A stretch of 64,000 nucleotides of DNA from Methanobacteriota archaeon (GTDB taxonomy: Archaea; Thermoplasmatota; Poseidoniia; Poseidoniales; Thalassarchaeaceae). Positions 9,810 through 63,793 of this stretch are shown piece by piece. Location: positions 48,142-112,141 of the forward strand of contig JAOMRN010000003.1 in assembly GCA_028355015.1 (NCBI GenBank), read 5' to 3'. Numbering within the stretch: the first letter of the stretch is position 1; each line of letters begins with the position of its first letter. The position numbers were made by a program, and so were the translations under genes. The notes under the pieces are model-generated. The model did not search any database and was not told the DNA's origin. It saw only the letters and a program-made list of their open reading frames with translations.

Positions 9810-10658
9810 ATGAGTAATTTAGCTGAATCAAACCATCTAAAGAAAAATTATAGATCAATGATTCATGAGGTAATATTTGAGGCAGATACACCATCAGGGA
9901 AGTTATTTGACATTATTCTATTATTTTCTATTTCTGCATCTGTACTTGCAGTTTCTTTAGAAAGTGTTGACTCAATTAATCATGTATATGGGGATGAATT
10001 GTATGCCATAGAATGGCTCTTTACAATTCTTTTCTCTATAGAATATTTACTACGATTATACTCTGTTATGAAACCTATAAAATATGCAACATCATTCTTT
10101 GGTGTTGTGGATTTAGTCTCAATTTTACCCAGCTTTATAGGTTTATTATTTCCTTTAGCCGGTTTCCAAAGTCTTCTTGTACTTCGTGCACTACGCCTTC
10201 TAAGGATATTTAGGATATTCAAATTAACTCGATACCTAGGTGAAGCTACTGCATTAAGTCAAGCAATAATTAAATCTAAAAATCGTATTATTGTTTTTCT
10301 CTCTACTATTATAGTTCTCAGTTTCATAACTGGGGCTGGAATGTATTTAGTCGAAGGGCCTTCTAATGGTTTTACTTCAATACCTCAGAGTGTATATTGG
10401 GCGATTACTACACTAACGAGTACGGGATATGGAGATACGGTTCCTCAGACTCCGTTAGGGAAAATGCTTGCAATTTTTATCATGATTATGGGTTATAGTT
10501 TGATAATTGTTCCCACTGGAATAATTACAAATCAGTTGGTTAAATCCACTGAGATAAGTACACAAGCATGCCCTTATTGCTCTAAAGATGGGCATGATAT
10601 TAATGCTAAACATTGCAAATATTGCGGTACAGAACTTAATCCAGTAGACTTACAATAA
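9810..10658 (+). CDS. Voltage-gated-type 6TM potassium channel with a C-terminal zinc-ribbon
   Basis: Selectivity filter TSTGYGD. S4-like RALRLLRIFRIFKLTRY. C-terminal CPYCS...CKYCG. Confidence 0.75.
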   Translation: MSNLAESNHLKKNYRSMIHEVIFEADTPSGKLFDIILLFSISASVLAVSLESVDSINHVYGDELYAIEWLFTILFSIEYLLRLYSVMKPIKYATSFFGVVDLVSILPSFIGLLFPLAGFQSLLVLRALRLLRIFRIFKLTRYLGEATALSQAIIKSKNRIIVFLSTIIVLSFITGAGMYLVEGPSNGFTSIPQSVYWAITTLTSTGYGDTVPQTPLGKMLAIFIMIMGYSLIIVPTGIITNQLVKSTEISTQACPYCSKDGHDINAKHCKYCGTELNPVDLQ

Positions 10659-13600: not shown

Positions 13601-13827
13601 ATTGTTTTCCATCTACACACCATATCTTTGTAAAGTCGAGAAATTACATGATGGATTCCTGGTTTTCCATTTGCAGTAGGTGGACCTTCAAGAAAAGTAA
13701 ATGGTGAGTTTCCATTTCTTCTTTGTTCAATAGATTGAGTGAATGTTTTTTCATTATTCCATGTCTCAATTAAAGAAGTCTCAAGAGCTACTGGGTCTAG
13801 TTCGCCAGCGGTCTTAGGTACGGTCAT
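10636..13827 (-). CDS. ileS: isoleucyl-tRNA synthetase
   Basis: HIGH (PPTANGKPGIHHV), KMSKS (KMSKSRGN), ~1060 aa with an editing domain. The 3' end overlaps the K-channel 3' end by 23 nt (convergent). Confidence 0.92.
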   Translation of the reverse strand: MTVPKTAGELDPVALETSLIETWNNEKTFTQSIEQRRNGNSPFTFLEGPPTANGKPGIHHVISRLYKDMVCRWKTMEGHIVERKAGWDTHGLPVEIEVQKQLDLMSNEAIEAYGMEAFNQKCKESVWTYEQAWREMTERMGFWVDMDDPYVTLHDNYIESAWWSLKQMFDKGLLFRGHKVLPYCPQTGTSYSSHEVAQGYKEVSEPAVFIKFKLTDSDASILAWTTTPWTLPGNVGLAVGPEVTYCRVKVTAEPSNSWEGRGGANLGEELILAKDLLGNVLRHKMEVLEEFPGSELIGKSYEPLFPGAIDGSNSNAWTVVGADFVTTSDGTGVVHTAVMYGEDDYNLGMKEGFPAQHTVGIDGKFIRGTHQELDGRYVKECDSDIIDLLSKNGSLYREHIYTHDYPHCWRTDHPLLYYAMDSWFVKMTAVREQIIEYNAEVEWAPEWTGSKRMGEWLSNIKDWAISRERYWGTPIPVWICQECQYEHCIGSIDEMMSMKTDDSPKPPELHRPYVDDVKLNCNNEGCSGEMIREPYVMDCWFDSGCASFAQWHYPFENKEKFEGVFPVDYICEAVDQTRGWFYSLLAVSTTVFDNVAYKRCLSLGHILDKDGKKMSKSRGNVVNPWDHFNKEGSDSIRWYMMTQSAPWTPTNFDSNGVRESYAKMFLTLWNVHRFYSDYAALDGFDPEDSLGHVNVKERSPLDQWVLSRMATVAESYHENFVSWDFHKAGRELENFVINDLSNWYVRRSRRRLWNEDDSNDKRSCQHTLHEILLTVCRLMAPVAPFIPDQIHRDLTGLSVHLADWPVGSSLVSSNLPTQNWVLEQEMALVRKLAETGRRVRVEAGRRQRLPCKSGWIVGGPDISEFHDILAEELNVVSLTTEEDLDRFQKIEIAPNRKALGKKCRQDLPAVLNLLSEADPDNILLEIEAEICILEGYDITMEDIEIRRVEKEGYAAATISVDEIGDVSLVLDMRLDEELLSKGLSRDIIRHVQAKRKEMNLEVESSIKLEVWVEGQDLFVEDWNHIQTETRAGDATLNDEKIPKNLNSFEVDGINVKFIVSLLD

Positions 13828-17317: not shown

Positions 17318-19063
17318 GTGAATGTACCTAGTGAGTTAACTTTGATGCTTGATGGCAAACATGGTACAACTAAACAGAAGGCAGCGCGACTTGTAGTCGA
17401 TCTTGCATCGACAGCAGGGGCGATAGATTTTGTCAGATGTGAACACGCTCATGTTTCAGGTGTTAGTGTAATTACTGGAGGTCATGGTCTTCGTAGATTC
17501 CTATCGGACTTGGCAGGAGATGTTGAAGGAGTTGTTTCAATACCTACTACTCTCAACTCAGCAGGCTGTGATAGGGAGAAAATGGAGCAAATGGGTATCG
17601 ACTATCCAGACTTTTTGAAACATCAATTTGAGATTATTGAAGCCTATTCTAATCTAGGCATTGATGCCACATTATCTTGTACACCCTATGATAGAGGAGT
17701 AGAATTATCTGAAGGTATAGGTTCTTGGGCGGAATCAAATGCTGTCTGTTTTTCAAATTCTTATACCTCTTTAATCACTAATCGTGAATCTGGTTTATCT
17801 GCATTAGCTACTGCATTAACTGGATGGGCTCCTCTTTGGGGGCTTCACTTAGATGAGAACCGTTTCCCTAATATTCATGTAAAAGTTCAATGTTCCATGG
17901 GAAATATTTCCGACTGGAGTGTATTAGGTGATTGGATTGGTAAACAAATACGGCCTGAATGGAAACTTCCTTGGGGTATGATGCCACATATTTCTGGTCT
18001 CCCAGAATTTGCTAGTTTCGAAATGCGTAAGGCTTTAACAGCAGCAGCAGCAAATTATGGATGTCCTATGCTCTGGGCCGATGGCCATACAGTTTCTCCT
18101 CCCTATACTGATTCTTATGAAGGTGAATTAATATTCACAGAGAGTGACTTACAGATTCGTTATCAAGAATTAGCACCTAAAGGAATTGTTGATTTAGTTG
18201 TAATCGGTTGTCCTCAGGCGAGTGTTGGCGAAGTTAGAACTACTGCCTCTTTTGTTCGTTCGAGAATGGAGCTTGGGGAGGTTATTCCTAATCAGAGATT
18301 ATGGGTATTTACGAGTGGTCATAATTATGAGATATTAGAATCTGATGGTACTATCGATATTCTCGAAGAAGCAGGTGCATTAATTTTGAAAGATACTTGT
18401 CCAGAAGTCACTCCATATAACAGAAACAAGTACAATCATATATTGACTAACTCTCTAAAGGCTGAACATTATCTGACCTCTGGATTGAATAAAATGCCAA
18501 CTAGTGTATCTACAATCTCAGAATGCGTTGCCCATGCTTTTGATCCAACTCTAATTCAATCACCTAGGCCGAAATTAGGACATAATAATGTCAAACCAAT
18601 GTTCTCCAATAAAATTCATAAATCTGGTGAATTAAATCTTCTCGGAAAAAGTCTCCCTAGCCAGACAGAGTGGTCAATCGAAGGTCGAGCTTTGGTTACA
18701 GACGTTCCAATTACTTACCTCGGATATGTGAACAGAGACACAGGAGTTATTGAAGAGAGAGGTCATCCACTTGATGGTACAGCAATTGAAGATACGATTT
18801 TGATATATCCAAAAGGCTCAGGTTCAACAGTAGCACCATTTGTTTTAATGGGTTTAATGTATACTGGTAAAGGACCTAAGGCCATATTAAATTGTGATGT
18901 ATGCCCTCTTACTTTACCAGCAGCCTCTCTGTTAAACGTCCCTTATGCACATGGTTTCAACTTAGATCCGACTTTAGAAATAAATAGTGGCGACCAGGTA
19001 TCGATGTCACTTAGAGATGGGATTGTCAGTGTTTCCGTCATATCTCGTACAAGCGAGGATTGA
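17318..19063 (+). CDS. Aconitase-X (AcnX) family protein, fused large (DUF521-like) + swivel (DUF126-like) domains
   Basis: N-terminal LMLDGKHGTTKQKAARLVVDLAS...AHVSG pattern. C-terminal small-domain pattern ...GHPLDGTAIEDTILIYPKGSGSTVAPFVLMGL. Confidence 0.65.
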   Translation: MNVPSELTLMLDGKHGTTKQKAARLVVDLASTAGAIDFVRCEHAHVSGVSVITGGHGLRRFLSDLAGDVEGVVSIPTTLNSAGCDREKMEQMGIDYPDFLKHQFEIIEAYSNLGIDATLSCTPYDRGVELSEGIGSWAESNAVCFSNSYTSLITNRESGLSALATALTGWAPLWGLHLDENRFPNIHVKVQCSMGNISDWSVLGDWIGKQIRPEWKLPWGMMPHISGLPEFASFEMRKALTAAAANYGCPMLWADGHTVSPPYTDSYEGELIFTESDLQIRYQELAPKGIVDLVVIGCPQASVGEVRTTASFVRSRMELGEVIPNQRLWVFTSGHNYEILESDGTIDILEEAGALILKDTCPEVTPYNRNKYNHILTNSLKAEHYLTSGLNKMPTSVSTISECVAHAFDPTLIQSPRPKLGHNNVKPMFSNKIHKSGELNLLGKSLPSQTEWSIEGRALVTDVPITYLGYVNRDTGVIEERGHPLDGTAIEDTILIYPKGSGSTVAPFVLMGLMYTGKGPKAILNCDVCPLTLPAASLLNVPYAHGFNLDPTLEINSGDQVSMSLRDGIVSVSVISRTSED

Positions 19064-21231
19064 TGACTAACCTGTATCGCAGACCTATTGTGAGTACTCG
19101 TCCAGATCCCACCCCTTGCCGTCCACAAGATCTTGGAAAATTTGAAATTATTCAGAGAGACGGTGCTGCTAGAATTGGTCGTATTCATACTAAACATGGT
19201 TTACTTAATACTCCTATGCTTCTCCCAGTTGTCAACCCAAATATTCGAACAATAGAGCCGAGAGAGATGTGGGATAAGTATCGAGTAGAGGGCCTGATAA
19301 CAAATTCTTATGTTATGTGGAAACACGATGATCTCAGTGAATTTGCTTTAGAAAAGGGGGTCCATGAATTAATTGATTTCCCTGGAGTAATCGTCACTGA
19401 TTCAGGAACGTTCCAATCCTATGTATATGGTGACGTGGAAGTCGGTGTAGAAGAAATAGTTGAATTCCAAAGAGATATTGGTGTGGATATAGGAACTATG
19501 CTCGATGTTTTCGGTCGGCCAGATATGAGTAGAGATGAACTTATTTCTGCAGTTGAGGTTACCGCAGAGAGAGGCCCAATTTCTCTTGAAAAAGCAGGTG
19601 AAGAATTACTCCTTAATGGCCCAATACAAGGTGGCTTACATGATGACCTTAGAGCATTATCCGGTGAATTAATGGGAGGTATTAGGGGCGAATATAGAGG
19701 ATTTACTGTTCATCCGATAGGTGGCATTGTCCCTTTAATGGAAAATCAGAAATATAGAGAATTATTCAAAATTCTTCTCTCAGCGAAGTCTACTATACCT
19801 CCTAATAGACCAATTCATCTATTCGGTTGTGGTCATCCATTACTTTTCCCAATGTCAATAGCACTTGGAGTAGATATTTTCGATTCTGCTGCCTACGCAC
19901 TTTTTGCAAGAGGGGGGCGACTCCTAACACCAACAGGAACAGTCCGCCTCGAAGAAATTAATGAATGGCCATATCAGTCCTCAGAGTTATTTAATTGGAC
20001 TCCTGAAGAGGTTAGAGCATTAGATTCAAAAGAACGAGAAAAAATCTTAGCAAGACATAATCTAGAAGTCACTCAATCAGAATTAGCACGTTGCCGTGAG
20101 GCAGTAAGGAATGGGAAAATATGGAATTTAGCGGAAGAAAGAAGTCATTGCTCTGCCCAGTTAAGGGACGCTTTTTTGTGGATATTAGAACAGTTAGATG
20201 ACCCCGATGAGGGACCTGTTGGAATGTCATCGATGAGGATGATTTCATCTACTAATCCTGTGAGGGGAGGTGGCGAGAATTTAGTTGATGATATTGAAGA
20301 GAGGCCTCATATTTTACATTTTAAATCTTTACTTGCGATGCGATGGAGAATCCCCGGTTCTTGGTGGGATGAGTCATTGGATGTACCTCAAAGAGTGGTT
20401 ATTATTGAAGGTTCTAAACCACCATGGAGGGATAGTTCTCTGCACACCGTAATTTCTTGTTTAACAGATGAGCCAAGGTCAATAGTTCTTATTTCAACTC
20501 CTATCGGTCTAATACCTTACAGTATGGAAGACGTTTCCCCTTGGTGCCATATTGATTGCTCTGATGACGTTTGGGACTTGCCCCTCGATGAAGATGAAAT
20601 AATTCAAGAATTATTTGAGTTAGACCTATCAGATCTCCCATTTATCCGAATTTCTCCGGGGCCTAGCCCTGATGAGCGTATTGAAGGTAGTAAAATAATT
20701 AGAGATTGGCTTGATAGGTGTTCAATTGTAGATAAATTATCAGTTCTCAATGGCGTAACTCCTTCTTTGGGTTGCAAAATCACTTCTGAGATGACAAGTC
20801 GAAGGTCGAAGACAAATAGAATGGTAAACGTTTATTCTGGAGGCGTTCATACTATTTCTCCGAGACTAAATGATGGTGGTATTTCTTTAACATTAGAAGG
20901 TGCGAGAATGATTAACTCAGAATATTCCTCATCCCCTCTTATTTTTGGAGAAGAATTTGAAGGTGATGAATTAGATCACCCTGGGCTTGCTAGAGTTATG
21001 ATTGTTAATGATGCCATACCGTTTGTAGGTCAAGGAAGGAATGTCATGCAAGGCTATGTTTTGGGAGCTGACCCCCATCTTATTCCTGGGCAACCTTGTC
21101 TTGTAGTAGATTCTAATGGCGATTTAGTTGCACACGGTATTGCAATAACTACTGCTAGAGAAATGGCCTATCTTACCAAAGGACTAGCAGTTAGAGTTCG
21201 TGATGGTGCGCTTAAAGATTCAGATGTATAA
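19060..21231 (+). CDS. tgtA: Archaeosine tRNA-guanine transglycosylase (ArcTGT) with C-terminal PUA-type domain
   Basis: N-terminal TGT pattern (RIHTKHGLLNTPMLLPVVNP). 723 aa, longer than typical. Confidence 0.75.
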   Translation: MMTNLYRRPIVSTRPDPTPCRPQDLGKFEIIQRDGAARIGRIHTKHGLLNTPMLLPVVNPNIRTIEPREMWDKYRVEGLITNSYVMWKHDDLSEFALEKGVHELIDFPGVIVTDSGTFQSYVYGDVEVGVEEIVEFQRDIGVDIGTMLDVFGRPDMSRDELISAVEVTAERGPISLEKAGEELLLNGPIQGGLHDDLRALSGELMGGIRGEYRGFTVHPIGGIVPLMENQKYRELFKILLSAKSTIPPNRPIHLFGCGHPLLFPMSIALGVDIFDSAAYALFARGGRLLTPTGTVRLEEINEWPYQSSELFNWTPEEVRALDSKEREKILARHNLEVTQSELARCREAVRNGKIWNLAEERSHCSAQLRDAFLWILEQLDDPDEGPVGMSSMRMISSTNPVRGGGENLVDDIEERPHILHFKSLLAMRWRIPGSWWDESLDVPQRVVIIEGSKPPWRDSSLHTVISCLTDEPRSIVLISTPIGLIPYSMEDVSPWCHIDCSDDVWDLPLDEDEIIQELFELDLSDLPFIRISPGPSPDERIEGSKIIRDWLDRCSIVDKLSVLNGVTPSLGCKITSEMTSRRSKTNRMVNVYSGGVHTISPRLNDGGISLTLEGARMINSEYSSSPLIFGEEFEGDELDHPGLARVMIVNDAIPFVGQGRNVMQGYVLGADPHLIPGQPCLVVDSNGDLVAHGIAITTAREMAYLTKGLAVRVRDGALKDSDV

Positions 21232-25876: not shown

Positions 25877-27076
25877 ATGGTGGGTGATTCTGATCAATTC
25901 ATAGGAGATTATTCTTCATTATGGCGTTTAGATATGATGCCAAGTTTACCACGTCTCTCATGGTGGTGGTGGTGGGTAATTATTTTCATACCTGATCCCG
26001 ATAACCCTGGTCGTTCTAGACAATTAATGGTTTTATGGTCGTCTAAAGAAACTCCTGCAATTCGCGTTAATGATCATTGGTGGAAACCTGGTTCACGGAT
26101 GAGGGTCGATGAACATGGCGGTCACGTGGTCCCTGGTATGGTATGTTCTTGGTGGTTCGATGGACAAAATATGCATGAGCCATTAATTATTCGTGAGTGT
26201 AAAATGGTTTCAATAGACGATAAGCACCCATTATGGCCGGAAGAAGGTCAAGGGCATGGTTCCGGAGCGGTGGTACCATTGGTTGATGAGGATTTATCTT
26301 TAGGAATGACCAAAGGTAACAAGAAGTTTTGGTTGAATTTAACTAGTGACAAAAAAGCACAACTAAATGGTGCTCCCAAATCAATAACTGCTGAACTAAC
26401 TCCTTGGTGGGGGCCTCCAAGTCGATTGACTTACAAAAATAATGTTTTCTTCTCAGATATGGGTTATGATATCTTAAGAGTCCAGGGCACTAAAGCTTCA
26501 ATCGTAATTGATGATGAAAAATTTGAAGGTACTGGATACTTTCAAAAAGTTAGTGTCCAAGCCCCTACATTCCCTTGGTTTTGGGGTATGTTACATTTTG
26601 ATGATGGTTCATATCTTGACTGGTTCATGCCCCATATCTCATTTTCTTGTTTAAATTTAAATGATAAACCCTGGAAACTCAGAGATATATTTAGAAACCC
26701 TAAAATTGGAACTGGGATATTCCATGATGCTAAGAGAGATAGAACCGAGGAATTCAAAAAATGTACAGTTGAGTTAATTAAACCAGATTCTAGTGATGAA
26801 AATTTATTTGATAATGATGGTAATTCTTTGCCTAAATTCCGAGTGTCTGTTTGGAATGAAAGGACACAGATTGCTCTAGAAGTTAGAGCGGTATCTCGGG
26901 CTAAGTGGACTTTTGATCAGCCAACTAGAGCAGGTATGGTCAGTCATTTAACTTACAATGAATACCCTCTCCAATTATTAAAAATAGTGATTAAAGACGA
27001 AAATGGCACACGCACTAAGTCGGATTATTCTTGGATACACGGTAATGCAGAACATTCTTGGGGTTTCCTTCATTGA
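25877..27076 (+). CDS. hypothetical protein, Trp-rich (WWWWW run), no recognised family
   Basis: Long ORF in AT-rich DNA; LSWWWWWVIIFI segment near the N-terminus. Confidence 0.4.
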   Translation: MVGDSDQFIGDYSSLWRLDMMPSLPRLSWWWWWVIIFIPDPDNPGRSRQLMVLWSSKETPAIRVNDHWWKPGSRMRVDEHGGHVVPGMVCSWWFDGQNMHEPLIIRECKMVSIDDKHPLWPEEGQGHGSGAVVPLVDEDLSLGMTKGNKKFWLNLTSDKKAQLNGAPKSITAELTPWWGPPSRLTYKNNVFFSDMGYDILRVQGTKASIVIDDEKFEGTGYFQKVSVQAPTFPWFWGMLHFDDGSYLDWFMPHISFSCLNLNDKPWKLRDIFRNPKIGTGIFHDAKRDRTEEFKKCTVELIKPDSSDENLFDNDGNSLPKFRVSVWNERTQIALEVRAVSRAKWTFDQPTRAGMVSHLTYNEYPLQLLKIVIKDENGTRTKSDYSWIHGNAEHSWGFLH

Positions 27077-27095
27077 TAATTAAGGTGGTATATTT

Positions 27096-28025
27096 TTGGA
27101 AGATTTAATTTCTAGTTTTAAGTCATTAATTGATGATGAAGAAGTTAGAGGCGATTTTTCTTTTATTTCTGAGAAAGAGGTTCCTATTTGGAAAGGTAAA
27201 CCTACATTTTCATCTTATTTACCAAGATATTTTCTAGCCCTTTTTGTTTTCTTAATTCATTTCTGTTTTTACCGAGTTGCAGTGACAGTTTATGCCGAAG
27301 GAGAGAGCGGATATCTCAATATGGCCATACGTATAATAGATCAATTATTTGATTTAGTAGACGTATTTGCATTTGTCGTTGTTATGATTATATTTGCTAG
27401 GATTAATTATTTCCTTAATTTTACAACATCAACTACCAAAATCTCACTTTTCTTAGTTTTTATAGGTTTGATACCTTCTGCATGGTTTATCATAAATATT
27501 GTCGATTGGTTTTTATTATTAATTGGAAGAGAAGCATTGAATGTACCTGAATGGTTCGATACTTGGTTTTTAGCTCTAGGAATAATAAATTCTTTAATCA
27601 TATTTACTTTCTCAATAATATCTCAATTTTCATATTCTTATGTAATGACTGATAAAAATCTCTATATTCAAAGACGTCAATTTATTTTCTATAAATCTCA
27701 TATCAATATTTCCTTTGAAGATTTAGAAAACCTGATTACTCAACAGTCAATTTTTGGGAAATTAATTGGTATTGGAAATGTTTTACCTATTTTAAAAATT
27801 AACTCAGATGTTTCCCCTAAGGTCAATAATGAAAGAACAGGGATTCAAAAATTCATCTATGTAATCAAATTATTAATTTCTTATAAAAGATCTAGTAAAG
27901 AGATTATATTGCCTCCCTCAGAATGCTTTTTTGGCATTAAACAGCCAATGGTTATTTACGAATTAGCTAATGAATTGATAGATCTGGAAAATGGTAGACC
28001 CGATTTATTAGTTCAAAATGATTAG
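27096..28025 (+). CDS. polytopic membrane protein, hypothetical
   Basis: TTG start in the track; 5-6 hydrophobic helices. Confidence 0.4.
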   Translation: MEDLISSFKSLIDDEEVRGDFSFISEKEVPIWKGKPTFSSYLPRYFLALFVFLIHFCFYRVAVTVYAEGESGYLNMAIRIIDQLFDLVDVFAFVVVMIIFARINYFLNFTTSTTKISLFLVFIGLIPSAWFIINIVDWFLLLIGREALNVPEWFDTWFLALGIINSLIIFTFSIISQFSYSYVMTDKNLYIQRRQFIFYKSHINISFEDLENLITQQSIFGKLIGIGNVLPILKINSDVSPKVNNERTGIQKFIYVIKLLISYKRSSKEIILPPSECFFGIKQPMVIYELANELIDLENGRPDLLVQND

Positions 28026-53859: not shown

Positions 53860-53897
53860 AATCAGTCTATATATGCTGCATAGACCCCATCAGATGA
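53860..53897 (+). promoter_or_regulatory. candidate archaeal TATA box (TCTATATATG, ~53864-53873) giving a leaderless transcript for oppA
   Basis: TATA sits ~24-27 nt upstream of the ATGs at 53894/53897. AT-rich 190-bp spacer upstream. Confidence 0.4.
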
Positions 53898-55924
53898 TGA
53901 AGCCTAGATTTAGTGCTCTATTTTTATGCACGCTGATGATTGCCTCGGTATTTGCCGGGTGTCTCGGTGGCGAAGACGATGTAGATGGTTGCATGGATGC
54001 AACCGCTAACAACTACAACGCTGACGCCACAGTAGACGACATGTCTTGTACCTATGACCCAACTATGACTTCCGTAATGGAATCATATGCGGCAGATACT
54101 ATGGCATATGATGACGCTTGGTCATCTCTGCAGAGCATACGTGCTTGTGCTGAGACAGGATCAAACAACCCATGCGAGATTGTTGAAATGACAATCGGTG
54201 ATGCATCTACGTTTGACCCTCATGATGCTTATGATTCAGCATCTGGTGACGTTATTGAGAATGTTTTCGATACCCTATACAGGTATGAAGGAGATGGCTC
54301 AGGAAATGCGATTATCGTACCACGTTTAGCTACTGGCCACACAATTAGTGATGACCAACTAACGTACACATTCACTCTACGTGATGATGTATACTTCAGT
54401 AATGGTGACCATATGACTGCTGAAGATGTTGTATATTCATGGGAAAGAGTGAATGAAATGGCAAGCCCACTTTCACACGTTTCTTGGATTACTGAACAAA
54501 ATTTTAACACGTCAGGTCTGACAATGATTGATGATACTCACTTTTCGGTAACTTTGATGCAACCATATGCTGGATTCATTTCTACAATCGCTTACACTGT
54601 TGGTGCTATTGTAAACAAAGACCTTTGTGAAGCCAATAGAATAGTTACTGCTGATGATCCTGCAACTGCTGATGTAGACGAGTCATCTGATGACTGGTGT
54701 CATGGATGGATGGACGAAGCACCTCTTGGTGCAGGTACCGGTGCTTACATTGTTGATTCATGGACTCGTGAGACTTCAATCGTTCTGACACCTAACTGGA
54801 TGTACTGGGAAGATGGTGGATTCAATATCAACCGTTTCACTTCACAAATAGTTACTGAAGCTTCAACTCGTCTTCTTGCTTTCCAAGATGGTGAGGCTGA
54901 TTTCGGTTCATTAAACATCGAGGATGAGCCAGAGTTCTGTGATAATTATGAAGATGGACCTAATGTAGTAGGTAAGGAAGGATTCGTTTGTACATACAGA
55001 GAATCTTTCACAATTACTCTATCTGCAATGAATGTTATGCCAAAGGCTCTAGATGCTGGTGAAGAAAGCAACAACACTGATGCTAACTCGTCTCTAGTTC
55101 TAAATCATGACTGTGATATGGATGGTACAATGGATTGTAACGTAATGTCACAATCTGCAGTTCGTAAGGCCATTGCATATGCTTTCGATTATGATACAGC
55201 ACGCCGTGATACATACAGCGGACAATTAGCTCCAGTATACGGCCCAATTCCTAATGGTTTCTTGTATGATGAGACTCAATCACAGGTATTCAGCTACGAT
55301 CTAACCATTGCTGAGCAAACTCTTGAAGATGCAGGATTCATCAAGCAATATGACTGTTCAAGTCTAACTGTTGCAGGTGCACCAACTGTAGTTGCTGAGG
55401 GAGATAGAGATGGTGACGAATGTCGCCTACCAAACATTCTGAGAATCATGGCTAACGAAGGTAACGATTACCGTATTGCTATGGCTGGTCAAATTGCACA
55501 GTCATTAGGTTCAATCGGTGTTGCAACTGATGGTGATGCAAAGCCTTGGGCTGAGTATCTAACAATGTACTACACTAGTACATTCGAGATCAGATTCAGT
55601 GGATGGGCTCCAGATTATCTGGACCCAGATAACTACTGGACTCCATTCGCTGCAAGTCACGATGCTGGCGGAGACGCATATGGTACAAATTACCACAATG
55701 CGGCTCTAGATGAGAATCTAACAGCAGCTCGTGTTTCAACAGACGATGCAGAGCGTACACAACTGTACAGTAATGCATTCGCTCTTTGGACGGAAGACCC
55801 GAACATGATAATCATCGGCCAAGGTAATGGTATTAGCGTAAAGCGTACTGATATTGTATCCGCTCCATGGGCAGCTATAGGCTCTGCTCACTGGTTTGAC
55901 TACGATAAGTTACCAGTAGCTTGA
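53894..55924 (+). CDS. oppA: ABC peptide/nickel-type substrate-binding lipoprotein (family-5 SBP, OppA/DppA-like)
   Basis: Signal + lipobox (VFAGC), two-Cys motif GCMDATANNYNADATVDDMSCTY, then the family-5 SBP body. The track start 53873 is probably too far upstream. Confidence 0.8.
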   Translation: MMKPRFSALFLCTLMIASVFAGCLGGEDDVDGCMDATANNYNADATVDDMSCTYDPTMTSVMESYAADTMAYDDAWSSLQSIRACAETGSNNPCEIVEMTIGDASTFDPHDAYDSASGDVIENVFDTLYRYEGDGSGNAIIVPRLATGHTISDDQLTYTFTLRDDVYFSNGDHMTAEDVVYSWERVNEMASPLSHVSWITEQNFNTSGLTMIDDTHFSVTLMQPYAGFISTIAYTVGAIVNKDLCEANRIVTADDPATADVDESSDDWCHGWMDEAPLGAGTGAYIVDSWTRETSIVLTPNWMYWEDGGFNINRFTSQIVTEASTRLLAFQDGEADFGSLNIEDEPEFCDNYEDGPNVVGKEGFVCTYRESFTITLSAMNVMPKALDAGEESNNTDANSSLVLNHDCDMDGTMDCNVMSQSAVRKAIAYAFDYDTARRDTYSGQLAPVYGPIPNGFLYDETQSQVFSYDLTIAEQTLEDAGFIKQYDCSSLTVAGAPTVVAEGDRDGDECRLPNILRIMANEGNDYRIAMAGQIAQSLGSIGVATDGDAKPWAEYLTMYYTSTFEIRFSGWAPDYLDPDNYWTPFAASHDAGGDAYGTNYHNAALDENLTAARVSTDDAERTQLYSNAFALWTEDPNMIIIGQGNGISVKRTDIVSAPWAAIGSAHWFDYDKLPVA

Positions 55925-56082: not shown

Positions 56083-57219
56083 ATGAAGCTACAAGAATTT
56101 ATTGTCAGAAGATTAATCCTCTTAATCCCTGTAATCATGGGAGTTTCAATATTCACATTCGCTATAGCCCAGATTATACCTGCCGACCCTGCAGCCGCCT
56201 TATGTGGTGAAAAATGTGGAGTAGTTGGCTCCAATGGACTAACTGCCTACGAATCTAATGTCATAAGATTGGGTCTTGATAAACCAGTATGGCAGCAATA
56301 TGTCATATATGTTACAAATCTTCTTGAGGGTGACTGGGGTGAATCAGTTACATTCCATCGTCCAGTAATTGAGAAGCTCAGAGATGCTGCTCCTATCACT
56401 CTTGAGATGTCTTTTTTATCTCTAGCAATGGGATTTCCCATGGGCATCACTTTAGGAATTTTTAGCGCAGTATGGCAAGACAAACTATTCGACCAGGCAT
56501 CCAGATTTGTTGCGATTGCATTTGTTAGTTTACCCATATTTTGGTTAGCCATGATGTTCCAATATATTCTCGGAACTCAAGTTGGTATATGCGATCCAAT
56601 AACTCAGGCTTTACCTTTGGTTCCTGATACTGAAGGTGGTTGTTTTCCTATATACGGGAGACATGATCCTACCTATACATTCCCAGATACAGGGACTGGG
56701 TTCCACTTAATCGATAGTTGGATTGTAGATGAGCCAACGAAATTCAATCCTCAGACAAATCGTTACGAAGTTTCAATGTCTCACATGGATATGTTTATGG
56801 ATACTTTAAAGCATCTATTCTTACCCTGTTTCACACTAGCAGTGGCGAGTACTGGAGGACTTCTAAGATATATGAGAGCCAGCCTTTTAGAGGTGATGAA
56901 TGAAGATTATGTTAGAACCGCTCGAGCTAAAGGAATTTCTGAAACTAGAGTCATTCTAGTCCATGCTGTACGTAATGCTTTGGTGCCAATAGTTACGATT
57001 CTAGGATTCTCTATAGGGGGTGCCATAGGAGGCGCTGTTCTTACAGAAACCATATTTGCATTCCCAGGTATGGGTAAAACAGCTGTCGATGCTATTGTTT
57101 ACTTAGATTTTTCAATGATAATGGGGGTTACTTTAGTTACGGCTATAATTTTCCTCCTCTCTAATTTACTTGTAGATATTTCATACGCTATAGTCGATCC
57201 AAGGGTGCGATTAGAATGA
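56083..57219 (+). CDS. oppB: oligopeptide/dipeptide ABC permease OppB/DppB-like
   Basis: MKLQEFIVRRLILLIPV start, EAA-loop region RTARAKGISE. ~60-aa insert relative to short homologs. Confidence 0.8.
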   Translation: MKLQEFIVRRLILLIPVIMGVSIFTFAIAQIIPADPAAALCGEKCGVVGSNGLTAYESNVIRLGLDKPVWQQYVIYVTNLLEGDWGESVTFHRPVIEKLRDAAPITLEMSFLSLAMGFPMGITLGIFSAVWQDKLFDQASRFVAIAFVSLPIFWLAMMFQYILGTQVGICDPITQALPLVPDTEGGCFPIYGRHDPTYTFPDTGTGFHLIDSWIVDEPTKFNPQTNRYEVSMSHMDMFMDTLKHLFLPCFTLAVASTGGLLRYMRASLLEVMNEDYVRTARAKGISETRVILVHAVRNALVPIVTILGFSIGGAIGGAVLTETIFAFPGMGKTAVDAIVYLDFSMIMGVTLVTAIIFLLSNLLVDISYAIVDPRVRLE

Positions 57220-59126
57220 GTGATTTCACCACTGATTTCATTTTGTATAGCATATATTTATTTTTCTTAATTTTTACTATTGGGATTATTTTTGATAAAA
57301 TAAGAGGTAAAAAGTGGGCAGAAAGCCTTGAAGATCGTGAGGAGGGATTCACACGATTCATCCAAGGCTGGAAACAAAGATTTTATGACTTAAAAAAAAG
57401 TTGGAAGATTTTTAGGAAATCAATACTTGCTATAATCGGTTTAACTCTTATAGTTACAGTTTCAACTATCAGTATTTTTGCAGATGATATTGCAGTCGAA
57501 CATCCTTACAGGAATTTGCAAGATACAGAAGATCTTTGGTGGATTGATAACGAACCAAGAAGAGAAGCTCCATTCTCGGAGGCATGCGATTGGCATGAGC
57601 AAGGGATTGATTTATTTGGAATAAAAACTAAAGGGTATTCTCGTTATGTACCTGCTGTTTCAGATCCAGTGATTGATGAAAACGGATCTCTTACACCAAT
57701 ACCCCTAGAAATTATTGAGATTGAATTTATCGAAGATGATTTAGGTTATGATTTGAATAATTCTTTGATAATAGTCTATAATGAAACCACATTTTTTGTG
57801 ACGGACGAAGCGTTAAACATTACTAGTTCAAAAATATGGGTCACTTATGAATTTCAGAATAATGACATGCATCATTGGTGGTTACCTGATGGTTATGATG
57901 TATGTATTATGGGTACCACAAATACCGGGCAAGATTTGTTTAGTAAGATATTATATGGTTCCCGTATTTCACTAAAAATAGGTATTACCGTTGCGTTCTT
58001 AACTGTTGCATTGGGTACAATTGTTGGAAGCATAAGTGGGTATTATGGCGGAGTTATTGACGAAGTAATCATGCGAATTACTGATGTATTCTTTGCAGTG
58101 CCTGGCTTGATTTTAGCAATGGCTTTTGTCGCCGCATTACAGAATACTACAAGCCTAACAATCGCGATGTCCACCGCAGCATTTTTATTGTTATTTTTTA
58201 ATATTCTTTCTACAAGAAACGTAATTTCTGAATTAATTACAGGAGAAGGAACCGATCGAAATTTAATGTTTAAAATAAAAAATAAATTGGCGTCACAGTC
58301 TGATTTAGAAAATAAAGTTTTTAATTTCAAAAACTCAATACTTGAAATCGCGTTATTTTTATTGCGCTTCAGAGGAGTTTTATTAGTAGGTTTAACATTA
58401 ATTTTCTTAGGGAGTTTTTGGCCAGAATTATGGTCAAATAATACTGACGTGAAGTTAGTTAAATCATTAACTTTAGTTGCGATTTTCACCCTATATGTGG
58501 TAATAACAATCTTGGATAAAACATTAAATGAAGGTGTACCTAGTAAATTGATTTCAAAGAGAATCTCTGAATCATTTGATTTTGGGAATCCTTATCGATT
58601 CTTAGCATTAAGGACGATTCTGATATTCATTTCAGTCGTTTTGTTAATTTTTGTAACTAAATCCAGTGATTCCGATTTTATTCTGATTAAGGACTTTGAT
58701 AGATTATGGAAAATTCAGGCTGCATTAATATTAACTGGTTGGCCTGGTTATGCAAGACTGATCCGAGGTCAAGTCTTGTACATCAGAGAGATGACGTTTG
58801 TAGAGGCAGCAAAATCTGTGGGAGCCCCTGATGGAAGAATAATGTTCAGGCATATATTACCGAGTGCTTGGGCCCCGTTGTTGGTTGCTTTTACACTTGA
58901 TGTAGGTGGTACAATATTATCTGCATCTGGTTTATCTTTCATAGGCCTCGGTGCTGAACCGGGGACTGCAGAATGGGGTATTCTGGTTTCTGATGGCCGT
59001 AGATTTTTCCCCAATTCCTGGTGGTTAGTGACATTCCCTGGTTTGGCGATTTTACTCACAACTCTTGGTTTCAATTTGCTCGGAGATGGATTAAGAGATA
59101 TAGTAGATCCGAAAAATAAGAGGTGA
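57216..59126 (+). CDS. oppC: Oligopeptide ABC permease OppC/DppC-like (636 aa). Long N-terminal extracytoplasmic extension and a ~190-aa TM-rich insertion
   Basis: Canonical blocks (GTTNTGQDLFSKILYGSRISL; GWPGYARLIRGQVLYIREMTFVEAAKSVGAPDGRIMFRHILP) are separated by residues ~310-500 of extra sequence. Confidence 0.75.
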   Translation: MSDFTTDFILYSIYLFFLIFTIGIIFDKIRGKKWAESLEDREEGFTRFIQGWKQRFYDLKKSWKIFRKSILAIIGLTLIVTVSTISIFADDIAVEHPYRNLQDTEDLWWIDNEPRREAPFSEACDWHEQGIDLFGIKTKGYSRYVPAVSDPVIDENGSLTPIPLEIIEIEFIEDDLGYDLNNSLIIVYNETTFFVTDEALNITSSKIWVTYEFQNNDMHHWWLPDGYDVCIMGTTNTGQDLFSKILYGSRISLKIGITVAFLTVALGTIVGSISGYYGGVIDEVIMRITDVFFAVPGLILAMAFVAALQNTTSLTIAMSTAAFLLLFFNILSTRNVISELITGEGTDRNLMFKIKNKLASQSDLENKVFNFKNSILEIALFLLRFRGVLLVGLTLIFLGSFWPELWSNNTDVKLVKSLTLVAIFTLYVVITILDKTLNEGVPSKLISKRISESFDFGNPYRFLALRTILIFISVVLLIFVTKSSDSDFILIKDFDRLWKIQAALILTGWPGYARLIRGQVLYIREMTFVEAAKSVGAPDGRIMFRHILPSAWAPLLVAFTLDVGGTILSASGLSFIGLGAEPGTAEWGILVSDGRRFFPNSWWLVTFPGLAILLTTLGFNLLGDGLRDIVDPKNKR

Positions 59127-59130
59127 TTTT

Positions 59131-61086
59131 GTGTCTGAAAATTCGTTATTAAAAATTCAAAATCTCAAAGTCCATTTCGACACACTTGAAGGCCCAGTTG
59201 AGGCTTTACATGATGTAAATCTTGAAGTTAAAAAGGGTCAAATAATGGGTGTCGTAGGGGAATCAGGATGTGGTAAGTCGGTTACCTCATTGACCAGTAT
59301 TGGATTAGCCACTTGTATCGTTGATGAAGGAAGTATCAAGTATGATGGTAAGGAAATGATTTTTCATGAAAGTGATAAAAATAATTCTCTTGTATTTCTT
59401 AGTAACATATTACCCTACATCGCAGTTTTAATTTTCTTCCCTGTAGGTTTTGTTTATCTAATGCCTTTTATGAATGATCCACTACTAGGTTTCCAAATCA
59501 TAATGTTAGGCTTTGGATTGATTATTATTTCTCTTATTATCAAATATTTTATTTACTCCGATTTAAGAGAACATGAGAAATTTATGAGATTTATTAGAGG
59601 TAATGAAATAAGTATGATTTTCCAAGAGCCAATGACTGCGTTAAACCCCCTATACACAGTTGAAAAGCAGATTTATGAGGTTATGAAGACCCATAACCGT
59701 TTAGTAGACTCTAGATTATCTCAATATGATAGAATTTTTTCTTCATTAAAGTCCCCATTTAGATTTATGTATAATTGGATTTTATCTGATCGTTTTTCAT
59801 CAATATTTTTCTTAATTCTTCTATTAACTTATCTTATAACTTCATGTATGGGACCAAACCTAATTTCTTCATGGGGGACTCGCTTTGCCGTAATATTCTA
59901 CGCTTCTGCCGAGGTATCAATATCATGCACTAATTATACGGATGAATTAATTTCTTATTGCTTTTTATTGATTCCTTTTGGTATACTAAGAGCCTCAATA
60001 AAATCCTCGATGGATAGAAAAGAAGACTTCAGAAAGATGTTGGTGTCAATTCCATATGTATCTGTCATATTATTATTGATTCTATGGTATGATAGTAGTC
60101 TTTTTTTGGGTGATTTATGGCATGAAGAATTAGAAATTTCTGACAACAATTGGGTCCATTCGGCGTTTATGATTGCTTTCTATTTCCCTATCATTTCATC
60201 ACTCTTTGTTGATTTCTCTAGGCTTGAAGAAGTTCATAGATTTTTGATAATTAGATCAATACCTTTTACATTTACTCTAGCACTAACTTATGCAATACTT
60301 CTGTGGACTCCTAATCAGGTCGTTGGAACCATCGTTGCTTTGGTGATGGTAATATCGATACCAGGTATGATATTGATTGATTACTTACAACTTGACCCTG
60401 CTCATAGAGGACAAGTAGTAAAGATTCTTGAAGATGTCCAGATACCTAATCCTGGGGCGGTTATTACAATGTATCCTCATGAGTTATCTGGAGGGATGCG
60501 TCAAAGAGTTATGATTGCTATGATGATGTCCTGTGAGCCCAAATTACTGATTGCAGATGAACCAACTACTGCACTTGATGTCACGATACAGGCTCAAATT
60601 CTTCACTTAATGCGTGATCTTCGAGATAGAAAGGGCACTTCGATAATGCTGATTACTCATGACCTTGGAGTTATAGCTGAATTATGCGACTCAGTATCAG
60701 TGATGTATGCGGGATCAGTTGTTGAGACAGGAACTATTGAAGACATACTTGCAAATCCAAGGATGCCATATACAATCGGACTTCTACATAGTATACCCAA
60801 GATTGTACACTCGGATGAACGCGAGGGGCGCACAAGTCTCCCGATAATTCCTGGTCAAGTTCCAGATCCAAATACTCACTTTGACGGTTGCCGTTTCCAT
60901 CCAAGATGTCCATTTGCAGACGATCTCTGTCGCTCAATTAGGCCAGAAATGATTGAAGTTAGCGAAGGGCATTATGCTGCTTGCCATCATACTGATTTAA
61001 CTATCATTTCTGAAGATGTAGAGTCTTCTTTTGATATATTTTCTAAGGAATTCGAAGGCGTGGGAGGTGAGGTAATTGTCAGATAG
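59131..61086 (+). CDS. oppD: Oligopeptide ABC ATP-binding protein OppD-like (651 aa). Two hydrophobic insertions inside the NBD
   Basis: GTG start. Walker A GESGCGKS ... ISMIFQEPMTALNP ... YPHELSGGMRQRVMIA ... Walker B LLIADEPTTALD, plus the oligopeptide C-terminal domain. ~72-aa and ~230-aa hydrophobic inserts. Confidence 0.8.
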   Translation: MSENSLLKIQNLKVHFDTLEGPVEALHDVNLEVKKGQIMGVVGESGCGKSVTSLTSIGLATCIVDEGSIKYDGKEMIFHESDKNNSLVFLSNILPYIAVLIFFPVGFVYLMPFMNDPLLGFQIIMLGFGLIIISLIIKYFIYSDLREHEKFMRFIRGNEISMIFQEPMTALNPLYTVEKQIYEVMKTHNRLVDSRLSQYDRIFSSLKSPFRFMYNWILSDRFSSIFFLILLLTYLITSCMGPNLISSWGTRFAVIFYASAEVSISCTNYTDELISYCFLLIPFGILRASIKSSMDRKEDFRKMLVSIPYVSVILLLILWYDSSLFLGDLWHEELEISDNNWVHSAFMIAFYFPIISSLFVDFSRLEEVHRFLIIRSIPFTFTLALTYAILLWTPNQVVGTIVALVMVISIPGMILIDYLQLDPAHRGQVVKILEDVQIPNPGAVITMYPHELSGGMRQRVMIAMMMSCEPKLLIADEPTTALDVTIQAQILHLMRDLRDRKGTSIMLITHDLGVIAELCDSVSVMYAGSVVETGTIEDILANPRMPYTIGLLHSIPKIVHSDEREGRTSLPIIPGQVPDPNTHFDGCRFHPRCPFADDLCRSIRPEMIEVSEGHYAACHHTDLTIISEDVESSFDIFSKEFEGVGGEVIVR

Positions 61087-62137
61087 GGAAACTTTAATCG
61101 AACTAAATGAAGTCAAAAAATGGTTTCCTATCAAGTCTGGTTTATTATCTCCTGTGAAGAATTTTGTCCATGCAGTTGATGGAGTAAGTCTTGTTGTAGA
61201 TAAAGGAGAAACATTGGGTATTGTTGGAGAGTCTGGTTGCGGAAAAACTACACTTGGTAGACTTATTTTAAGCCTCATACCAATTACATCAGGCTCAATA
61301 ATTTATGATGGTGTTGAATTAAGAAAAATGAAAAATAAAGATATCAGGAGAAAAATGCAGATAGTTTTCCAAGATCCCGGCGGTTCAATGAATCCCCGTA
61401 TGACCGTCAGATCAATAATTTCAGAACCTTTGATCGTCAATGGTTATTCTGATGGTGCTGAAATGACTAAAAAAGTAGGTGATTTATTAGAATCCGTTGG
61501 TTTGAAGAGGAATCATATGACTAGATTCCCTCATGAATTCTCAGGTGGTCAAAAACAGAGAGTTGCTTTAGCTAGGGCTCTAGCACTTGAACCAGATTTC
61601 ATCCTTCTAGATGAACCAACTAGCGCATTAGATGTTTCAGTTCAGGCCCAAGTGCTAAATTTATTAGATGAGATCCAGAGAGAAAGAGGTCTAACATTTG
61701 TTTTCATAACCCATTCTTTGAATGTAGTACATCATATTTCAGATAGAGTTGCAGTCATGTATCTTGGAAAGATAGTCGAACTAGCAGAAACTGATAATTT
61801 ATTTGAAAGCCCTGCTCACCCCTATACTCATGCTCTTCTTTCGGCTATCCCTGAACCAACAGTTGGTCAAGATAGAAATGAAAGGATAGTTCTAAGCGGA
61901 GATGTTCCGAGTCCTGCAGATCCGCCTTCAGGATGTCGTTTCCATACAAGGTGCCCAATAGCCAAGATCGGCGTTTGTGATGTAGATGAACCAGAATTAG
62001 TGAATATTAATTCGGGACATAAAGTAGCATGTCATTTCCCCTTGGCTCCCGGTGAAAAATTACCTTTGATTAACAATGGCATCCCATATGGTATTCACCC
62101 CCAGTCTTCAACTAACGCCTCTGATCAAGAGTCCTAA
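61076..62137 (+). CDS. oppF: oligopeptide ABC ATP-binding protein OppF-like (canonical size)
   Basis: GESGCGKTT, FSGGQKQRVALARAL, ILLDEPTSALD, C-terminal CRFHTRCP. TTG start. Confidence 0.85.
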   Translation: MSDRETLIELNEVKKWFPIKSGLLSPVKNFVHAVDGVSLVVDKGETLGIVGESGCGKTTLGRLILSLIPITSGSIIYDGVELRKMKNKDIRRKMQIVFQDPGGSMNPRMTVRSIISEPLIVNGYSDGAEMTKKVGDLLESVGLKRNHMTRFPHEFSGGQKQRVALARALALEPDFILLDEPTSALDVSVQAQVLNLLDEIQRERGLTFVFITHSLNVVHHISDRVAVMYLGKIVELAETDNLFESPAHPYTHALLSAIPEPTVGQDRNERIVLSGDVPSPADPPSGCRFHTRCPIAKIGVCDVDEPELVNINSGHKVACHFPLAPGEKLPLINNGIPYGIHPQSSTNASDQES

Positions 62138-62225: not shown

Positions 62226-62579
62226 ATGGAGGGTCCCGAAGAGACATCTAATTCAGTCGATTTTATAGATAAGAAATCTCAGCAAGAAGAGTCTCTTTGG
62301 AGAATTAAAAAGGCATCCGATTTAAGGAGGCACAAAAGAGTTCAATCTATTGTTGGTCAACAGTTTGAAGGTTGGAAAGTCACATTAGGACGTCCATTGT
62401 ACCTTATTTTTTGTATACTATTTGATGGGCTAATATTAACTGAAATCCCAATTCGTTTAGGCAGAACTGTCCCTTCATGGATTTTATTTGGAGTAATATT
62501 AGGTTATGTCATAATGCTCCAGAAGCAATATTATGACCAATGGTTTGATGTCGATTTAACTGGTTTAGATATGAATTAA
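62226..62579 (+). CDS. small membrane protein, hypothetical
   Basis: The track ORF starts inside oppF (62076); the internal ATG at 62226 avoids the overlap. Two C-terminal TM helices. Confidence 0.3.
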   Translation: MEGPEETSNSVDFIDKKSQQEESLWRIKKASDLRRHKRVQSIVGQQFEGWKVTLGRPLYLIFCILFDGLILTEIPIRLGRTVPSWILFGVILGYVIMLQKQYYDQWFDVDLTGLDMN

Positions 62580-62782: not shown

Positions 62783-63793
62783 ATGGCAGATAAAGCAAAA
62801 TTAGAGTACATATGGCTAGACGGATATAATCCTACACAGAATATGAGGAGTAAAACAATGGTGAGAAATAATTTTTCGGGCAAACTTGAAGATTGCCCTA
62901 TTTGGAATTTCGATGGTAGTTCTACCAAGCAAGCAGAAGGTGGTTCGTCAGACTGTTTATTGAAGCCGGTTGCAATATTTCCAGATCCAATGAGAGATAA
63001 TGGATATCTGGTTATGACTGAGGTCTTGAATCCCGATTCTACACCACATGTATCTAATGGTAGGGCAACAATCGATGATAATGATAATGATTTTTGGTTC
63101 GGCTTTGAACAAGAATATTTCATTATGGATGTGGAAACTCAACTACCGTTAGGCTTCCCATTAGGTGGATACCCTGGGCCTCAGGGTCTCTATTATTGCT
63201 CAGTTGGGGGTAAAAATACACATGGCCGAGCATTTGTAGAAGAGCATGCTGATTTATGTATTGCAGCAGGTATAAATTTCGAAGGAATCAATCAAGAAGT
63301 TGCATGTGGGCAGTGGGAATTCCAATTATTTGCTAAAGGAGCTAAAGCAGCTGGAGATGAATTATGGGTTGCTCGATATCTTTTAGATAGACTAACGGAA
63401 AATTATGGATATTATATTGAATATCATCCTAAACCAATAAAGGGCGATTGGAATGGATCGGGTATGCATGCTAATTTTTCAGATGCGAAATTACGTGATA
63501 GTGGAGACGAAGCAGTATTCCATAAAGTATGCAAAGCATTTGGCGAAAATATCAAGAGGCATATGGATGTTTACGGTGCTCATAATGAATTACGTCTTAC
63601 TGGGCTTCATGAAACACAATCTATTGATCAATTCTCTTACGGAGTTTCAGATAGAGGGGCTTCAATCAGAATCCCTATTACAACAGTAGAAGATGGCTGG
63701 AAAGGGCGCCTTGAAGACAGACGCCCTGCATCTAATGGGGACCCTTACAAGATTGCCTCAGCCATAGTTAAAACTACAAAATCTACGTATTGA
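62783..63793 (+). CDS. glnA: glutamine synthetase, type II (eukaryote-like GSII)
   Basis: EYIWLDG...MRSKT, FGFEQEYF, YYCSVGG, CGQWEFQ, LWVARYLL, PKPIKGDWNGSGMHANFS. These match GSII signatures, not GSI. Confidence 0.8.
   Translation: MADKAKLEYIWLDGYNPTQNMRSKTMVRNNFSGKLEDCPIWNFDGSSTKQAEGGSSDCLLKPVAIFPDPMRDNGYLVMTEVLNPDSTPHVSNGRATIDDNDNDFWFGFEQEYFIMDVETQLPLGFPLGGYPGPQGLYYCSVGGKNTHGRAFVEEHADLCIAAGINFEGINQEVACGQWEFQLFAKGAKAAGDELWVARYLLDRLTENYGYYIEYHPKPIKGDWNGSGMHANFSDAKLRDSGDEAVFHKVCKAFGENIKRHMDVYGAHNELRLTGLHETQSIDQFSYGVSDRGASIRIPITTVEDGWKGRLEDRRPASNGDPYKIASAIVKTTKSTY

Follow-up and report, generated by a model that had tools for sequence, protein, structure and literature searches.

In a 64,000-nucleotide stretch of a Thalassarchaeaceae genome (a Methanobacteriota archaeon of the order Poseidoniales; assembly GCA_028355015.1, contig JAOMRN010000003.1, positions 48,142 to 112,141 of the forward strand; hereafter the window), an ATP-binding cassette (ABC) transporter operon contains an oppD gene whose nucleotide-binding domain (NBD) is interrupted by two long in-frame inserts. 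Together, the inserts carry about eight hydrophobic helices, which we predict to be transmembrane (TM). We think it probable that the operon encodes a working type I importer of the PepT family (Opp/Dpp/Nik-like), in which OppD is anchored covalently in the membrane by these supernumerary helices. An earlier note on the same DNA had described this gene as an OppD-like ATPase with membrane helices inside its NBD, and the present analysis follows up that description.

Inserts in the OppD-type ATPase

Judged from its motifs and alignments, the open reading frame (ORF) is an intact OppD/DppD-type ABC ATPase of the PepT family. Two inserts, at what we call site 1 and site 2, divide it into three blocks:

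59131-61086, plus strand: oppD ORF, GTG start, 651 aa
59131-59361, plus strand: block 1 (aa 1-77), the first beta strands and Walker A (GESGCGKS), delimited by alignment
59362-59583, plus strand: insert 1 (aa 78-151), two hydrophobic helices (~93-113 and 119-138) paired as a hairpin around a short acidic loop (MNDPL), then a helical stalk of basic character that re-enters the core
59584-59709, plus strand: block 2 (aa 152-193), the Q-loop strand ISMIFQEP and the helix touching the permease coupling helix
59710-60399, plus strand: insert 2 (aa 194-423), a lead-in (198-219) that is basic and amphipathic, followed by about six hydrophobic helices (aa 222-240, 273-290, 304-321, 342-360, 375-392 and 397-419)
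60400-61086, plus strand: block 3 (aa 424-651), the remaining helical subdomain, LSGGM, Walker B/Glu, the H-loop and oligo_HPY with four cysteines

When compared by phmmer with all Protein Data Bank (PDB) chains, the window OppD aligned with Mycobacterium tuberculosis OppD (8j5q_D) as three blocks in order (query 5-77 with chain 3-76, 152-193 with 83-124, and 424-624 with 127-323), and likewise with Escherichia coli DppD/OppD. In an alignment of 150 sequences, insert 1 takes up 74 residues where canonical OppD and OppDF proteins have 6 (+68), and insert 2 takes up 230 where they have 3 (+227). Alignment to canonical OppD thus places at 59362-59583 and 59710-60399 the two in-frame insertions that the earlier note had seen within 59340-60400, and it bears out that every canonical block is present and in order. 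Solved E. coli DppD/OppD and M. tuberculosis OppD (8z1v, 8z21, 8j5q) are contiguous soluble peripheral subunits of ~320-330 aa per NBD. Relative to the solved DppD/OppD, the window protein has ~295 extra residues and ~8 hydrophobic helices in two internal loops, and at 651 aa it departs from the contiguous soluble NBD of ~320-340 aa that all solved members share.

The catalytic apparatus is intact. Walker A (43-50), Q165, LSGGM (452-456), LLIADE (472-477, Walker B and its glutamate) and H510 follow one another in canonical order and are invariant or nearly so across 78 homologues. Pfam ABC_tran matches OppD in two separate stretches (E 7.1e-23), and oligo_HPY (PF08352) lies at aa 531-600 (E 3.7e-18). 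Four cysteines (C587, C593, C600 and C618), invariant in the same 78 homologues, reproduce the [4Fe-4S] ligand pattern described for E. coli DppD (PMC12136057), and a cluster is predicted here as well. The NCBIfam equivalogs for OppD all score below their curated cut-offs (300.7 bits vs 575 for the OppD subfamily, 288 vs 541 for DppD). As these scores are so far below, a substrate (peptide, nickel or other) is not assignable, and we use ‘Opp’ as an architectural label only.

Several observations indicate that the inserts are real coding sequence. None of 20000 base shuffles that preserved composition left the frame of insert 2 open, and 0.5% left that of insert 1 open, in line with the earlier note’s view that they are open beyond chance, and the other five frames of insert 2 contain 10-30 stops. 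Near-identical 651-aa proteins (98-100% identity) recur in NCBI, JGI, ENA, Tara and Logan assemblies, with single 651-aa sequences recorded on 136 and 95 contigs. Their sources are named Euryarchaeota archaeon, Candidatus Poseidoniales or Candidatus Thalassarchaeum, and their public label is always the ordinary ‘oligopeptide/dipeptide ABC transporter ATP-binding protein’, which conceals the inserts.

A metagenome scan for insert 2 returned 4 loci. In codon-aligned comparisons with metagenome loci, the ratio of non-synonymous to synonymous substitution rates (dN/dS) was ~0.03 for the core and rose to 0.08-0.13 for insert 1 and 0.2-0.35 for insert 2, the ends of which tend to be tighter than the middle, with exceptions among the comparisons. 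As dN/dS is below 1 in both inserts, they are translated and constrained, though far less than the catalytic core; the earlier note’s argument that they are under coding constraint and not junk is upheld. Across 42 population variants, the predicted helices contain 11 variable sites, none of which changes to a charged residue. Conserved residues within the inserts (P117, G120, P378, L391, W392, P394 and P411) were found across the 78 sequences, at ~54% overall identity.

Other origins for the insert DNA were considered and rejected. An assembly chimera is not compatible with the same protein on hundreds of independent contigs. The GC content of the inserts (0.27 and 0.32) is lower than that of the core (0.40). 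Orthologous loci of 53-55% GC also have OppD inserts (at both sites in locus L081, at site 2 only in L088), so AT-richness is not the cause, and AT-rich drift as a source of hydrophobic filler was rejected. Blastn and tblastn searches of the 64-kb window with insert DNA and peptide returned self hits only; with this single copy, an in-frame mobile repeat (RPE/MITE-like) was rejected. Pfam searches with the isolated inserts gave nothing significant and no Hint/intein match at E <= 10, and the insert junctions (slashes mark the boundaries: IF/HESD, REHEK/FMRF, NRL/VDSR, DYLQL/DPAH) show neither the Cys/Ser at the start nor the His-Asn at the end that mark an intein, and an intein was rejected on both counts. 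Rfam found two tRNAs only in the window, and an intron was likewise rejected.

We then considered the membrane character of the inserts, using 19-residue Kyte-Doolittle windows with a threshold of >= 1.6. Insert 1 has hydrophobic windows at aa 93-111 and 119-137, and insert 2 at aa 222-240, 300-318, 342-360, 372-390 and 398-416, all scoring 1.7-2.6; a sixth segment of insert 2 (~273-290) was taken from the hydropathy map and not from the automatic windows. With the NBD blocks assumed to be cytoplasmic, the predicted outside loops contain 0, 1, 0 and 0 lysines plus arginines and the inside loops 1, 12, 5, 2 and 2, that is, 1 among 61 outside-loop residues vs 22 in the inside loops. This asymmetry also holds as an average over the 78 homologues, in which the loop of insert 1 has none and its C-terminal flank a mean of 6.0.

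As each insert sits in a loop of a cytoplasmic domain, an even number of membrane helices is needed. Read by eye from hydropathy maps, site 2 has 2, 4 or 6 helices across orthologues, and a natural deletion variant (P0052) is short of what we read as two helices. In hydropathy, in even helix counts as read and in the distribution of positive charge, the inserts follow the rules for membrane proteins, and we predict that they form TM hairpins. The ~8 hydrophobic helices that the earlier note placed inside the NBD thus agree with hydropathy, positive-inside charges and the helices of the structural model described below; its estimate of about six in insert 2 suits the window lineage but not the orthologues with 2 or 4.

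An AlphaFold2 (AF2) monomer model of OppD, built from 150 diverse sequences (in-family, canonical and fused OppD), reached a pLDDT of 84.8 and a pTM of 0.74; with only the 78 in-family sequences, the mean pLDDT was 44 and the model unusable. By Foldseek, the model has the DppD/OppD fold (TM-score 0.88 target-normalised, 0.45 query-normalised), and no PDB coverage of the inserts was found. Insert 1 is modelled as helices 85-110 and 117-141, followed by a stalk (143-159) into the Q-loop strand, with a pLDDT of 92-98 over the block. Insert 2 is all-helical, confident over 198-239 and moderate over the last three helices (340-419), the last of which (395-419) meets helical-subdomain helix 423-435 after ~3 residues.

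In E. coli DppBCDF, DppD pairs with DppB, a salt bridge joins DppD E114 to K243 in the coupling helix of DppB, and the helical subdomain turns ~20 degrees between states (PMC12136057). The nearly invariant E183 of the window OppD corresponds to DppD E114 by alignment-block offset, not residue-level alignment, and lies ten residues ahead of the start of insert 2. This match to the coupling-helix contact would put site 2 at the NBD-permease interface. Given that proximity and the rigid junction with the subdomain, we infer that the helices of insert 2 are rigidly tied to the moving helical subdomain, in which case a rotation of ~20 degrees on ATP binding would pass directly to the membrane helices.

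Distribution and partner subunits

The earlier note had proposed a search of metagenomes for orthologues with the same inserts, and we find that inserts are kept across a whole archaeal clade. All 65 homologues analysed (65/65) in a monophyletic Poseidoniales clade have an insert of at least two helices at site 2, and these 65 insert-bearing proteins form one clade in a core-only neighbour-joining (NJ) tree, with bacterial fused OppDF proteins, several of them from Verrucomicrobia, as sister. The class with the two-helix insert only sits in two positions of this tree, the internal branches of which are short. Homologues at 74-82% identity (577-662 aa) and at ~54% (538-631 aa) all have both inserts, and insert 1 ranges from 69 to 76 residues. 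In a profile search of 1.84 billion representatives, the matches that run through the inserts came only from three full-length 50%-identity clusters and fragments. A GTDB genome scan with the generic patterns MIFQEPM and NPLYTVEK gave 80 bacterial loci, matching only query 63-155 near the Q-loop block, and no Poseidoniales. Collectively, the results run opposite to what the earlier note had listed as counting against its proposal: hundreds of contigs rule out a chimera, the inserts persist in homologues, and they consist of hydrophobic helices.

The same profile search returned P0265 (412 aa), which is without insert 1 and has only a two-helix hairpin at site 2. As its locus, L088, shares downstream genes with L081 and L082/L083 (the small ORF described below, MFS, glutamine synthetase, DAO and DUF92), we take P0265 to be an orthologue. 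Its family ranges from 411 to 429 aa, and one member is labelled Thalassarchaeaceae.

The partner genes in the window are as follows:

53873-55924, plus strand: substrate-binding protein, family 5, 683 aa (SBP_bac_5, E 4.3e-61), with an N-terminal signal/lipobox-like segment
56077-57219, plus strand: OppB-type permease, 380 aa (BPD_transp_1, BPD_transp_1_N), near canonical, with a ~70-aa soluble loop insert
57216-59126, plus strand: OppC-type permease, 636 aa (vs ~300), oversized by hydropathy and DppC alignment
61076-62137, plus strand: canonical OppF-type ATPase without interruption, 353 aa (one ABC_tran stretch, 35-183, and oligo_HPY)
62226-62579, plus strand: small ORF of ~117 aa with two hydrophobic helices, directly 3' of oppF

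The five-gene order (binding protein, B, C, D, F) is conserved in loci L081-L086 and L088. OppB aligns with E. coli DppB 8z1v_A (7-166 with 3-157, 239-378 with 197-336), and OppC aligns by phmmer with E. coli DppC 8z1v_B in three stretches (59-103 with 19-63, 222-309 with 71-158, and 502-635 with 166-299). The extra material in OppC consists of an N-terminal hydrophobic helix (aa 8-26) seen only in the window-type lineage, a predicted extracellular insert of ~118 aa (aa 104-221), and, placed in the outside loop between TM3 and TM4, a ~190-aa insert (aa 310-501) that holds four hydrophobic helices and is conserved in L081, L082 and L086. An enlarged OppC accompanies the enlarged OppD in every locus examined. 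OppF is of canonical length, as the earlier note had said, but does not begin 60 bp downstream: with its TTG start assumed, it overlaps oppD by 11 nt, and locus L082 is annotated with the same overlap. Other ABC ATPases within the window are canonical.

The placement of the extra helices differs between lineages. In L088 (3-4510, Thalassarchaeaceae-like, GC 0.53), OppC has 766 aa with four extra N-terminal helices and an acidic, Asp-rich ectodomain of ~380 aa, its TM3-TM4 loop is without extra helices, and an outside loop of OppB holds two inserted helices. L081 has four extra helices in the OppC loop and 2+4 in OppD, and the window has 1+4 in OppC and 2+6 in OppD. The supernumerary helices thus seem to be distributed differently among the subunits in different lineages. 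As OppC, and OppB in the sister lineage represented by L088, also carry them, a point absent from the earlier note, this is a phenomenon of the whole transporter and not of OppD alone. The small ORF, without a match in Pfam or NCBIfam, has counterparts (117-124 aa) in the corresponding place of L081, L082 and L088 that share conserved motifs (TLGR…C.L.DG…TE…GrT…LQ…Y…F.VD); its two-helix product is a candidate for a further membrane subunit of the transporter.

The binding protein carries, at its N-terminus (53873-54100) and after ...VFAGCLGG, a short Cys-containing Asp/Asn-rich module, DGCMDATANNYNADATVDDMSCTYD, past which the SBP_bac_5 domain begins at about residue 148. Its NCBIfam equivalog matches are all far below their cut-offs. 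Downstream of the operon lies a short glutamine-synthetase-like gene (62783-63793, plus strand, 336 aa) with Gln-synt_N and a partial Gln-synt_C (profile 15-155 of 344), syntenic with the opp operon in L082, L083, L086 and L088.

Elsewhere in the window, two ORFs of 399 and 309 aa without a Pfam match (25877-28025, plus strand) follow two ABC-2-type transporter gene pairs, and the 309-aa ORF falls in the lowest-GC kilobase of the window (27001-28000, GC 0.293). The longest ORF of the window, of 1063 aa, lies at 10636-13827 on the minus strand. At 17318-21231 (plus strand), an aconitase X gene (AcnX and swivel domain, 581 aa) is followed by a tRNA-guanine transglycosylase gene with C2 and PUA domains (723 aa), which is taken to be of the archaeosine type; both genes fit an archaeal origin of the window.

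Readings of the inserts

In the reading that we favor, the three sequence blocks would fold into one normal DppD-like NBD, two loops of which would have expanded into TM hairpins or bundles (at site 1 with 2 helices and, in the window lineage, at site 2 with 6). Each insert would exit the cytoplasmic domain, span the membrane an even number of times and come back, and this path would leave the ATPase covalently anchored beside the permeases. By homology with DppBCDF, OppD would be placed under OppB. The inserts of OppD, the extra helices of OppC (1+4) and possibly the small two-helix protein would then form a shell around the canonical 6+6 core. Membrane insertion of the inserts, their packing against OppB/OppC and their function are what we infer from these data, and permanent tethering or stabilization of the complex is most likely their role, being the most economical function.

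Several points weigh against this reading. The TM assignment derives from the Kyte-Doolittle scan, in which automatic helix counts were odd in 11 of the 78 sequences and were settled only by eye. Residues 240-340 of insert 2 are poorly predicted by AF2 (pLDDT 38-73), and the middle of this insert, which varies in length from 127 to 239 residues among homologues, is also its least constrained part (dN/dS 0.25-0.36). In the closest pair compared (98% identity), the inserts differ by 7 non-synonymous and 0 synonymous changes, a pattern compatible with near-neutral drift over short time scales. Finally, the extra helices sit in different subunits according to lineage, which fits neutral accretion as well as it does a specific function.

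Such constructive neutral accretion would mean that the helices are real TM helices without a specific function, which arose in tolerant loops of several subunits: harmless hairpins parked in the bilayer and now kept only since their loss would misfold the protein. We consider it unlikely, but as the helices shift between subunits (in the L088, L081 and window lineages) and constraint is poor in the middle of insert 2, it is a serious rival, and the 7:0 changes in the closest pair point the same way. Homology was not detected between the hairpins of insert 1 and insert 2 (hhalign probability <= 5%) or, by BLASTP, between the OppC insert and the OppD inserts, and none of them resembles a Pfam family, as accretion would have it. 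Moreover, both sites receive inserts in other proteins: Mollicutes-like soluble ones at site 2 and, in the fused protein P0208, an acidic one at site 1. On the other hand, insert 1 is steady in length and has a dN/dS of just 0.08-0.13, conserved residues lie inside the inserts, and the site 2 hairpin has been lost in no member of the clade. The high AF2 confidence for the hairpin of insert 1 may, in addition, reflect co-variation with the rest of the protein.

A bolder form of the favored reading is that the peptide-type importers of Poseidoniales represent a new architectural class: the ATPase itself would be integral to the membrane, with its helical subdomain firmly joined to TM helices, and these would form an accessory module with the lineage-variable extra helices of OppC/OppB and the conserved small two-helix protein. 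We hold this only tentatively. If it were true, NBD motion would be coupled directly to the module, bypassing or supplementing the coupling helix, and the module could gate, regulate or stabilize transport in the unusual membranes of these archaea.

Less probable by a wide step is a distinct functional membrane module, made of the OppD and OppC helices and the small protein and driven by the helical subdomain of the ATPase, which might serve as a second gate or pathway, as a docking site for a membrane-anchored binding protein, or as a lipid- or voltage-sensitive regulator. It would suit the direct joining of the last helix of insert 2 to the helical subdomain after ~3 residues, the position of site 2 ~10 residues from the coupling-helix contact residue, the enlarged OppC at all loci examined and the conserved small two-helix gene 3' of oppF. 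However, pathway-like conserved polar or charged residues were not noticed inside the helices, and helix number and position vary between lineages. An accessory membrane module driven in this way is possible but unsupported.

We give almost no weight to an artefact or non-protein element (chimera, pseudogene, intein, intron or in-frame mobile repeat), for which the lower GC of the inserts speaks, but against which stand the recurrence of the same architecture on hundreds of contigs that come from independent projects, a dN/dS below 1 in the inserts, their presence in orthologues at 53-55% locus GC, the absence from the inserts of a Pfam intein/Hint match and of intein-type ends, and the searches of the window, which found no second insert copy and, with Rfam, two tRNAs only.

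Comparison with known ABC proteins

In the standard picture, ABC transporters are modular: soluble NBDs dock onto membrane domains via the coupling helix, either non-covalently or by terminal fusion. In the fused proteins (type IV/V exporters, MacB-type proteins and fused importers), one chain holds both TM helices and the ATPase, as here. However, their membrane domain is terminal and forms the translocation pathway, and their NBD is contiguous, whereas the helices in the window interrupt the NBD and OppB and OppC are still separate genes. The ABC fold is known to accommodate very large insertions in the stretch from Walker A to the signature, as in the Rad50/SMC coiled coil, the UvrA insertion domains and the CFTR regulatory insertion. 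Unlike the inserts predicted here, these are soluble (coiled coils, zinc modules and disordered loops), serve DNA binding or regulation and are not known to span the membrane.

The closest parallels in position are found within the family. Mollicutes OppD (NF043079, MMSYN1_0167, 561 positions; the matching OppF model, NF043078, has 649) likewise has an insertion at site 2; in it and in the window protein alike, this site follows the post-Q-loop helix and precedes the helix that comes next in the helical subdomain. Window residues 426-617 match NF043079 profile positions 345-531, vs ~127-313 in canonical models, so that the Mycoplasma model has ~218 extra positions at site 2. The Mollicutes-type protein P0276 (1191 aa) has a K/E-rich, soluble insert at this site, such inserts being ~200-300 aa, and P0208 (940 aa, a fused OppDF, haloarchaeal-looking from its acidic composition) has a soluble acidic insert of ~150 aa at site 1. 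As judged from these fused proteins, the inserts are charged and soluble and not hydrophobic helices, and their similarity to those in the window was assessed by inspection only. Still, both loops seem to be hot spots for insertion in this NBD family generally.

Additional helices are a familiar feature of permeases. In type I importer permeases they are added at the N-terminus; MalF, for example, has 8 TM helices against a core of 5-6, and the extra helices of the window OppC and of OppB in L088 are a change of the same kind. To our knowledge, supernumerary helices occur in type I importer permeases only, never in the ATPase. The earlier note had not recognized the architecture as a described one, and in the full-text literature, within which subscription journals are mostly outside coverage, we found neither TM helices within an ABC NBD nor, for Marine Group II (MGII), this feature described; one MGII metatranscriptome paper does not mention opp genes.

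If the favored reading is true, a catalytically intact NBD with membrane helices threaded through it beside the coupling-helix groove would be a natural experiment on how much covalent restraint the helical subdomain's rotation tolerates, and it would also show how membrane complexes acquire supernumerary helices. Among planktonic archaea, the uncultured Poseidoniales rank with the most abundant, and peptides and proteins are thought to be their food. An unusual feature of a transporter that all of them keep gives heterologous expression, cryo-EM and metaproteomics something concrete to aim at.

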